Shown in pieces: positions 33,296-34,736 of a stretch of 64,000 nt of DNA. The notes under the pieces are model-generated. The model ran no database searches. It was not told the DNA's origin and worked only from the letters and a program-made list of their open reading frames with translations. The stretch lies in sequence record PZ452584.1, one strand, 5' to 3'. The position numbers and the translations under genes are program-made. How positions within the stretch are numbered: the first letter of the stretch is position 1; each line of letters opens with the position of its first letter. The stretch comes from a phage.

Positions 33296-33489
33296 ACTAA
33301 TTCCTTTAGTCCGTAGATAGGAGATAATTCATCGCCCATACGAAGGTCTTCATTTCCATCTACCCAAGAAACAATATAAGCCTCTTTTACTTGAACATTT
33401 CCCAATTTAAATGCGGGTAAAACCTTAGAAATTAATCCAGGTATACCAACTCCCTTTAATTCAACGGTTTGGCCTAAAAAGAATTTCAT
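33292..33489 (-). CDS. Hypothetical protein (30.5 position)
   Basis: 65 aa ORF. Confidence 0.6.
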   Translation of the reverse strand: MKFFLGQTVELKGVGIPGLISKVLPAFKLGNVQVKEAYIVSWVDGNEDLRMGDELSPIYGLKELV

Positions 33490-33776
33490 TAGAACCTCAT
33501 CTGAAAACCATGTGATTTAACATTACCGCCATTAATATCAGAACTATTAATTTCACGTGCAATTGAGGGATCAATGTCAATTTCGCCATTAAGTTTAATG
33601 ATAGACAAAGTATCACGCCCATTTACTGTGCGGAACTCTAAAGGACAAACTACATCAACGTAGTTTTTAATCGATTCACTGGTAGGCTGCAAATGAGCAG
33701 GAAGGTCTTTAGGCGCCTTTGAGAAAACTACTTCACAGAAATTTTTGCGGGTGTCAAAATAAGTAGTCATAAACAT
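33489..33776 (-). CDS. Hypothetical protein (30.6 position)
   Basis: Start trimmed to ATG 33776 (GAGGA 7 nt upstream); the 189-aa track version runs through a hairpin, promoter and terminator. Confidence 0.6.
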   Translation of the reverse strand: MFMTTYFDTRKNFCEVVFSKAPKDLPAHLQPTSESIKNYVDVVCPLEFRTVNGRDTLSIIKLNGEIDIDPSIAREINSSDINGGNVKSHGFQMRF

Positions 33777-33829
33777 AACATTTTCCTCAGTAAAGGGCCG
33801 AAGCCCTTTTCTTTTGTTTGTGTAAGATA

Positions 33830-33859
33830 ATACTATCACAAAGGAACCGTACTGTAAAC
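33830..33859 (-). promoter_or_regulatory. Early promoter candidate (GTTTACA-17-TAGTAT)
   Basis: Motif between a terminator hairpin and the 30.6 leader. Confidence 0.5.
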
Positions 33860-33889
33860 AACTTTGTGCAATCTTTGGAAAATAAAAAA

Positions 33890-33907
33890 GGACTCCCGAA
33901 GGAGTCC
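33890..33907 (-). terminator. Intrinsic terminator after 30.7
   Basis: GGACTCC-TTCG-GGAGTCC plus U6 on minus strand. Confidence 0.7.
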
Positions 33908-33912
33908 TCAAC

Positions 33913-34089
33913 TTATGCTTTCTGCTTACCAAAACGAGAAGCATCATCTCGAAGAACCGCACGTGCTCGGCGCATGATCTTCTCAACAGTTTGATTGATA
34001 CGAGAGTTCGACCCACGCTTGTAACCAGCGCGTTTAGAATCACCAACTTTCTTTTCAACTGCTTTCTTTGCTTTAGCTTGTTTTGCCAT
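33913..34089 (-). CDS. Small lysine/arginine-rich protein (30.7 position)
   Basis: 58 aa from ATG 34089; followed by UUCG hairpin plus U-tract. Confidence 0.55.
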   Translation of the reverse strand: MAKQAKAKKAVEKKVGDSKRAGYKRGSNSRINQTVEKIMRRARAVLRDDASRFGKQKA

Positions 34090-34487
34090 TATAAATTCTC
34101 TTTTAAATGAAAATGCAGGACTTATTGGCATTGCCTGCGCAAGCCCTCAAGGGGAACATAGGTTTTTGGATATTTAACGACCAGGATAACCATAAACCCG
34201 TCATCATACCTTATAGCTCTTATCTGTTGCACACCGTTAGCTTAAAGGTTCCGGGTTCGATTTCTCGAGGATAAGATATATACTGATGGATATATAGGCC
34301 TTGAGGCGTACTCCCGATTGGCCATCACCTCGGGGTAGCATGCACTTGCCGCTATAAGAATAACATTCAAGAGGTACACCATAAAACTGCCGAGGTCTTA
34401 AAACTATAATGATTCGCAAATCATTAATCAGACAGTTCGATGGCTCCTCGATTTTAGCTCACACTAAGGCAGTGAATCTCCAATAAA

Positions 34488-34736
34488 TTACTTCAATGTT
34501 ACCACAAAGTGACGAACTGCTTTTCGTGCAGCAGAAGCCAGAGGCTTAGCATACTTAAGTTCATCTTTTTCCTGAAGCTCGGCAGCTAATGCAGTTTGAG
34601 CAGGATTCAGATGTTTGAAATAACGCAGGATTTCAAGAGCTTCGGCTTCAACATCAATAGATGCGCCATAGTTTTCGTGACCATTATTCCATGCGTTTCG
34701 TTGCAGTTCAAGAGCGTGTTGTAATTGTTTAATCAT
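34488..34736 (-). CDS. rIII: rIII lysis-inhibition accessory protein
   Basis: 82 aa as in T4; position upstream of 31. Confidence 0.9.
   Translation of the reverse strand: MIKQLQHALELQRNAWNNGHENYGASIDVEAEALEILRYFKHLNPAQTALAAELQEKDELKYAKPLASAARKAVRHFVVTLK

Follow-up and report, generated by a model that had tools for sequence, protein, structure and literature searches.

ToxI is a type III antitoxin RNA that neutralises the toxin ToxN and is made of a 36-nt tandem repeat that folds as a pseudoknot, and a phage mimic, 'pseudo-ToxI', has been described (Blower et al. 2012, PMC3475682). The 36-nt ToxI unit of Pectobacterium reads AGGTGATTTGCTACCTTTAAGTGCAGCTAGAAATTC (PMC8610362). Another small non-coding element of phages is the PeSL cassette, whose early promoter in T4/PST follows the pattern TTTACW N17 TAYWAT (PMC4122927, PMC2839356). 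Here, the gap between genes rIII and 30.9 of a T4-type phage is compared with these systems. The gap is non-coding and a mosaic of small RNA modules. Its centre is a conserved 149-nt RNA structure, named element B in the following, which is probably a trans-acting accessory RNA.

The window, that is the whole stretch of 64,000 nt analysed (PZ452584.1), is from a T4-type phage (Tequatrovirus). An 851-bp query over 30.9–rIII matches phage LZ9 (FN868251) at 100% identity and many T4-like coliphages at about 99%. The minus strand carries all genes of this region (Table 1). The left neighbour of the gap had been taken in the first-pass annotation for an ORF at the position of 30.7; the LZ9 record and the T4 annotation identify it as gene 30.9. 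The 72-aa form of 30.9 is an upstream over-extension, and the real rIII–30.9 gap is therefore 34090–34487, 398 nt in length. A 189-aa TTG ORF (33489..34058) is likewise an artefactual extension. T4 genes 30.7 and 30.8 are absent from the window (33489–34131 region), and the downstream order is 30.9, a strong terminator (33888–33909), an early promoter (33830–33858) and then directly 30.6. Scanning of 34090–34487 found neither promoter-like (sigma-70, T4 early) nor terminator-like sites. A PeSL promoter-terminator cassette was consequently rejected for the gap, the true PeSL-like pair being located downstream of 30.9. In T4 the gap measures 244 bp and has nothing annotated in it.

Table 1. Genes, RNA modules and parts of element B at the rIII–30.9 locus (window coordinates).
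Feature	Coordinates	Strand	Description
Gene 30.9	33913-34089	minus	58 aa, start MAKQ..., very basic, phrog_1427; left neighbour; as in LZ9 and T4
Hairpin GCAGG-CAAUGCCAAUAAGU-CCUGC, then U-rich run	34115..34138	minus	just upstream of 30.9 ribosome-binding site; read from sequence
Hairpin GUUCCCCUUGAGGGCUUGCG (GUWCCC-loop-GGGSYUUG)	34138..34157	minus	contains CCTCAAGG; present in T4 too
Module AUGAUG-[hairpin, loop GUUUAUGGUUAUCC]-CGUUAAAUAUCC	34168..34207	minus	from alignments
Element B	34210..34358	minus	149-nt RNA, four-way junction without linker nucleotides; RNA position i = 34359-i
P1 of B	34351-34358 with 34210-34217	minus	8 bp here, CUUAUAGC/GCUAUAAG; formed by the two ends
P2 of B	34348-34350 with 34297-34299	minus	GGC/GCC
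Unpaired block AAGKGCAUG of B	34339-34347	minus	near-invariant; enclosed by P2
P2a/b hairpin of B	34309-34337	minus	conserved bulged A
Unpaired block CCU..G of B	34300-34306	minus	near-invariant; enclosed by P2
P3 hairpin of B	34277-34296	minus	plain hairpin
P4 of B	34270-34276 with 34218-34224	minus	encloses two sub-helices
P4a hairpin of B	34257-34268	minus	GAAA loop
P4b of B	34231-34256	minus	helix CCCGG/CGG-G, 15-nt loop
Unpaired block GGAMCC..GCUAAC..GUGUGCAAC of B	34226-34252	minus	near-invariant; inner P4 (GUGUGCAAC enclosed by P4)
Hairpin UAAUGAUU-UGCG-AAUCAUUA	34407..34426	minus	perfect, 8 bp; kept in T4, T6, Bp7 and VR26, deleted in phage sutha
Degenerate ToxI-like unit GGAGAUUCACUGCCUUAGUGUGAGCUAAAAUC	34450..34481	minus	directly after rIII stop; positional orthologue of clear units in relatives
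Gene rIII	34488-34736	minus	82 aa; stop codon 34488-34490; right neighbour

Element B is delimited by an inverted repeat that the first reading had missed, CTTATAGC (34210–34217) and GCTATAAG (34351–34358), complementary at 8/8 positions. This terminal helix closes a junction with three arms. P2 combines a hairpin with a sizeable, conserved internal loop, P3 is a plain hairpin, and P4 has two sub-helices. Some 45 nucleotides, spread over the P2 loop, the surroundings of the junction and the inside of P4, are nearly invariant, while the helices vary freely by compensation. The GAAA tetraloop is present on the gene strand only.

Homologues of B were gathered from GenBank phages, IMG/VR and metagenomes. 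RNAalifold on a plain, unfitted MAFFT alignment of 24 distinct sequences yielded 38 pairs, 20 of which are compensatory. A covariance model, with its structure written from ungapped type-1 sequences, matches the window exactly once, at 34210–34358 of the minus strand (185 bits, E=2e-38), and has no match in three regions of T4, among them the rnaC/rnaD-tRNA cluster (L040). In the model-guided alignment of 28 distinct sequences, which leans towards the structure used to build its model, 95.9% of the pair cells hold standard pairs and both-sided compensatory change occurs at 34 of 45 pairs, with at least one such pair in each of the 8 helices. Of 500 column shuffles, none reached these values on any of five measures. 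Sliding the 3′ partners by 1–3 columns left 24–42% paired and at most 11 compensatory pairs. Compensatory changes above both the shuffled and the slid controls are what is generally asked of a conserved structured RNA. Most of the sequences are close relatives, and the deepest covariation comes from about 8 divergent members (JC221, Olmo, mtp5, phiEap-3, L045, L078, L043/L047 and L011). Nearly the same architecture as in the model-guided fold is obtained by RNAalifold on the unfitted alignment and by the centroid of the single sequence, the latter reproducing almost the whole consensus. The thermodynamic z-score is modest (−1.96), and 7 of 200 shuffles fold equally well. Among the homologues, G-U pairs number 66 and A-C mismatches 7, and this asymmetry assigns the fold to the gene strand (minus); the model scores 187 bits in sense and 9 bits in antisense. 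Comparative analysis thus establishes B as a conserved, strand-specific RNA structure of 149 nt, predicted to fold autonomously.

A structured RNA was among the options of the first-pass annotation, which proposed covariance analysis over homologues as a check, and the analysis supports that option strongly, through features other than those it had listed. The 8-bp hairpin TAATGATT/AATCATTA exists as described (34407–34414 with 34419–34426, a perfect stem with a 4-nt loop) and lies outside the conserved element. The blocks CCTCAAGG (34145–34152) and CCTTGAGG (34299–34306) are also perfectly complementary, with 146 nt between them. Their pairing is outside the covariation-supported fold: CCTCAAGG belongs to the self-complementary hairpin GUUCCCCUUGAGGGCUUG, and CCTTGAGG is a strand of the internal loop and P2 helix of B. 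These are two separate local structures for which mutual pairing is not required.

B has no relatives in known RNA families. Rfam 15 (4227 covariance models) returned nothing that overlaps B at E≤10, ribozyme families included, whether the search covered 1.8 kb around B, five homologous loci, the phiEap-3 unit, or B alone with the laxest filters. The only Rfam matches are weak, snoRNA-like and in the flank of B, and apparent hits to Atu_C8 and Phe_leader are merely the 30.9 terminator. ARAGORN found 0 tRNA or tRNA-like genes in the window. A tRNA would show a cloverleaf with D-loop, anticodon loop and conserved T-loop (GTTCRANYC). A tRNA-like reading of the plus-strand 'T-loop' GGTTCGAT was discarded, as this sequence is one strand of P4a and reads GGTCCGAT in most relatives; on the plus strand, moreover, the G-U pairs would become A-C mismatches, and the junction lacks linker nucleotides. 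Homology to T4 rnaC/rnaD was rejected as well, there being neither similarity by eye nor a covariance-model match. Among the papers searched, for sequence strings of B and for structured RNAs of T4-like phages, none carries these strings or gives a description of the element. LZ9, rIII and 30.9 are not named in the 2010 PeSL paper (PMC2839356), nor are rIII and uvsY in the 2014 one (PMC4122927).

Aligned with T4, the window is nearly identical except for one extra 153-bp block, which T4 lacks exactly. A sensitive search with the 356-bp segment 34132–34487 found 991 phage records, 180 of which cover most of the segment. In T4, T6, RB27 and others the match is confined to the two flanks. In Klebsiella, Enterobacter and other T4-like genera only the middle 135 nt match, at 91–96% identity; these copies are syntenic, between rIII and a 30.9 homologue, with flanks that cannot be aligned. 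Such a conserved non-coding island amid unalignable flanks points to a functional RNA. The conserved 3′ block of B occurs in at least 400 phage records, B is present in roughly one quarter of the Escherichia/Shigella T4-like records, and 18 of 36 rIII loci from IMG/VR contain it (model search with filters off). Between the conserved flanks CCTCTTGAATGT and ATGATGACG the slot has three alternative contents: B (window, VR26), nothing (T4, sutha), or an unrelated insert of 45–50 nt (T6, Bp7). The insert of T6 (L048) and Bp7 (L049), UACUAUCAYGCGUCAGAAAARGUUAUCUGUSUAAG..., occupies the slot equivalent to about 34208–34360. Looser motif scans of IMG/VR returned the same ~19 T4-like contigs and no distant family members. 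A bacterial or plasmid origin or target of B was dismissed: exact B motifs had 0 matches in 185,579 GTDB bacterial and archaeal genomes, blastn against E. coli genomes gave none, and blastn against plasmids gave no credible match (four of 26–30 nt, E 0.4–5). Across the genomes compared, B is an accessory element confined to T4-like enterobacterial phages that moves as a cassette between loci.

The fixed-slot presence/absence polymorphism, the other inserts of T6 and Bp7 and the shuffled module order among genera could also be explained at the level of DNA, with B as a PeSL-like recombination cassette, a DNA site bound by a protein or a selfish insert without RNA function; indels of this kind are known to arise through PeSL cassettes (PMC2839356, PMC4122927). 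This is very improbable. The strand-asymmetric pairing is a signature of selection on RNA and not on duplex DNA. The unpaired blocks of B are about 95% identical across genera with unalignable neighbours, which argues for strong purifying selection, and B contains no early-promoter or terminator motif.

A protein-coding origin, as very small genes or as a decayed or nonsense-split gene, had been suggested from the lack of ORFs of 60 aa or more in 34132–34487. That lack holds for ATG starts; with TTG, one ORF of exactly 60 aa (34237..34419, minus) is found. The split minus-strand ORF is real, with 46 aa and a stop (34242..34382) followed past one TAA by 39 further in-frame codons, and hypothetical proteins are annotated here in some GenBank records. 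Both facts speak for a gene. Against it, the small ORFs run across the 153-bp block that is missing in T4, and the T4 comparison revealed no clean homology to intact small T4 genes. The small ORFs of the gap have 0 PHROG matches and 0 Pfam matches above threshold, the sole Pfam match being BA14K to a 36-aa ORF, far below threshold (E=0.034, 14.6 bits against a cutoff of 26). All six frames of the homologous elements contain stop codons, with the exception of one frame in JC221. The split ORF starts outside the conserved block, other genera do not keep this start, and substitutions in the element are compensatory within helices and not of the third-codon-position type. A coding gene, intact or decayed, is effectively excluded. 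The 'hypothetical proteins' that L002, L003 and further GenBank records show in the region corresponding to 34122–34419 look spurious. So does a 'glycogen branching enzyme' annotated in this non-coding region of one deposited genome.

B is also found at a second genomic position. A diverged copy (70–83 bits) occurs in Yersinia phage JC221 and in Slopekvirus-/Pseudotevenvirus-type phages (Olmo, mtp5, phiEap-3, ~20 records), where it is flanked by uvsY.-2 and the convergent uvsW.1/uvsW, a locus that in T4 comprises 55 bp only. These copies have other helix sequences and the same invariant blocks. A perfect T4 late-promoter motif, TATAAATA, precedes the GGC of P2 by 9 nt in phiEap-3, so that transcription would start inside P1; mtp5 and JC221 have CATAAATA. 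After B in phiEap-3, ~200 nt without a credible ORF lead to a bidirectional terminator. Each genome shows one copy of B, in one of the two loci. With a single copy in one locus or the other, each in its own context, B behaves as an independent ncRNA gene and not as a leader tied to 30.9. The ~200 nt between B and the terminator are conserved non-coding sequence in phiEap-3 (L042:950-1160) and JC221 (L022:1280-1490), for example GGCGUAMUCUUUUGCGYCGUCCGAU...GGUGAUUGAUAA..., and may represent a second RNA domain. The resemblance of this stretch to RAGATH-20 is weak and non-significant (E=2.1).

The second context also bears on a cis-regulatory role, in which B would serve as a riboswitch-like or protein-binding leader for translation or readthrough of 30.9. 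B is closed by P1 like an aptamer domain and has invariant junction nucleotides, it is upstream of 30.9 on the same strand in most genomes, and the ribosome-binding site of 30.9 could be hidden by downstream hairpins (in Klebsiella phages, UCUCC...GGAAGA). However, at uvsY-uvsW in Slopekvirus-type phages and JC221 no ORF precedes the terminator. The distance from B to 30.9 is variable (~115–190 nt), as are the modules, and in the window a hairpin module intervenes. P1 has no conserved alternative pairing, and T4 and T6, which lack B, express 30.9. As a general account a leader of 30.9 is unlikely. In Klebsiella-type phages B lies between the conserved AUGAUG-hairpin module and 30.9, and there a cis role is conceivable.

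Alternatively, B may be a self-cleaving ribozyme or an RNA-processing module, which would cut the polycistronic rIII–30.9 message or release the adjacent ToxI-like unit so that its ends are defined. In architecture B resembles the natural hairpin and twister-sister ribozymes: four helices meet in a perfect junction, the internal regions of two arms are invariant, the helices covary and the ends are closed. The position between cistrons, in a gap without terminator or sigma-70 promoter, would suit processing, and in KR8-type and CIP9-type phages and in L078 the ToxI-like unit ends exactly at the start of P1. Nevertheless, B searched alone matched no Rfam ribozyme family, as noted above, and a catalytic core is not recognisable. 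At uvsY-uvsW, B would be at the extreme 5′ end of the transcript, where cleavage has no obvious use, and in JC221 the ToxI-like unit is 3′ and not 5′ of B. We rate this possibility as low, though ahead of the cis leader.

Single units in T4-like phages match the ToxI repeat at 30/32 to 36/40 positions. Klebsiella T4-like phages have a clear single unit immediately 5′ of B (Phi_KR8, L005:2465-2495), and in L078 the unit (L078:1455-1490) both follows the rIII stop and abuts B. In VR26-like phages (L015) and L009, AGGTGATTCGCTACC-TTAAGTGCGGCTAGAAAATC follows directly after the rIII stop with a ToxI score of 47–51, the shuffle maximum being 22–28. The corresponding unit of the window (34450–34481) scores 18, which is not significant alone, and it is recognisable only through the VR26/L009 orthologues; T4 likewise keeps only a degenerate orthologue. 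About 200 phage records have such units: 163 are Klebsiella phage records (those examined being T4-like), and unrelated phages such as Bas88, SeKF_80, JSF10 and DU_PP_I are represented. The T4-like phages seen have a single unit only, without tandem repetition, and no published description of ToxI-like units in T4-like phages was found. No ToxI-like neighbour of B is present in L012–L014, L043 and L045. The association of B with these units is frequent but not universal. Because the neighbour is lacking in some lineages, and in the window is degenerate and ~90 nt away, the link is suggestive only. B itself was not accepted as a diverged ToxI array, its score against a ToxI dimer being 18, with 225 of 2000 shuffles as good (p ~0.1). 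A further ToxI-like match at 27–56 of the plus strand (24/30) is inside the start of a coding region and probably due to chance (score 30, shuffle maximum 28).

The modules around B differ in order among genera. The AUGAUG-hairpin module, for instance, is 3′ of B in the window and 5′ of B in Klebsiella phages. Its loop reads GUUKDWGGUYAUCC, followed by CGUUAAAUA, and its stem varies by genus (GAC.GG/CC.GUC, GUGG/CCAC, GUCGUAG/CUAGAC, GUGGAAG/CUUGCAC), a covariation judged by eye and unscored. The module (34168–34207) fits no sigma-70 or T4 early, middle or late promoter pattern. The GUWCCC-loop-GGGSYUUG hairpin adjoins B in both genomic contexts (also at L042:961-980, in L022 and in L045). At the place of the 34115–34138 hairpin, other genera have GGGAGC...GCUCCC.

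The reading that we prefer is a trans-acting RNA. B would be transcribed together with rIII and 30.9 from upstream promoters, and in Slopekvirus-type phages from its own late promoter with a terminator beyond. The invariant loops of the discrete folded RNA would then bind a partner, be it a protein, another RNA or a small ligand. A discrete partner-binding RNA of this kind would be a trans-acting ncRNA and not a regulator of 30.9. In order of preference, the trans-acting partner-binding RNA is followed by the ribozyme or processing module, the cis leader of 30.9, the DNA-level cassette and the decayed gene. T4 thrives without B, and any function must therefore be conditional. Host interaction or counter-defence is a speculative role, possible at less than even odds, and is suggested by the plastic early-gene regions in which B resides, by its dispensability and by the ToxI-like unit directly abutting it in several lineages. 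A bolder conjecture, which we consider doubtful, is that B founds a new class of phage RNA effector, either a new self-cleaving ribozyme or an RNA decoy or sponge that captures a protein or signal of host defence with high affinity, and forms with the abutting ToxI-like unit an all-RNA counter-defence cassette that is moved between intergenic slots.

B has escaped notice in the T4-type phages, the most intensively studied of all phages, because T4 itself is without it. It is among the best-supported orphan RNA structures obtainable from sequence alone, and the covariation of all helices together with ~45 near-invariant loop nucleotides across diverged genera implies a precise molecular job. 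If B works as ribozyme, RNA decoy or ligand binder, the conflict between phage and host would gain a new RNA tool, and the ToxI-like neighbourhood of B hints at RNA-based counter-defence islands. Close relatives with an empty, a filled and a differently filled slot constitute a clean natural experiment. The spurious GenBank 'hypothetical proteins' in the rIII–30.9 gap are a warning for annotation.

Several known systems resemble B in part. The T4 rnaC/rnaD (species 1 and 2) RNAs are, like B, small gene-strand ncRNAs of T4-type phages that are non-essential and have no function assigned after decades. They differ in their location in the tRNA cluster and in that rnaC ends in a tRNA-like T-arm/acceptor, whereas B has no T-loop. 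PeSL cassettes (Arbiol 2010; Comeau 2014) are likewise short conserved non-coding sequences of plastic regions with indels and module shuffling, yet they consist of a terminator stem-loop and an early promoter. B has neither, is three times larger and possesses a complex covarying fold. Four-way-junction riboswitches such as the yybP-ykoY Mn2+ riboswitch share with B the autonomous domain closed by P1 and the invariant nucleotides in junction and internal loops, but B matches none in Rfam, has no conserved expression platform and in one of its contexts lacks a downstream gene. The natural hairpin and twister-sister ribozymes have a linker-free four-helix junction, conserved dockable internal loops, helices that covary and a viral or mobile setting, as B does. 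B differs from such four-way-junction ribozymes in having no sequence or covariance-model similarity to them, its conserved loops on the non-adjacent arms P2 and P4, and no nameable cleavage site. ToxI and pseudo-ToxI (PMC3475682), finally, are a 36-nt tandem-repeat pseudoknot and not a unique 149-nt four-way junction, and their similarity to B is not significant. The likeness is that of a phage intergenic non-coding RNA acting in folded form, in the case of B putatively, against a host protein, and it extends to position, in that Klebsiella T4-like phages, CIP9-type phages and L078 have a clear single ToxI-like unit directly next to B, and VR26 has one after rIII.
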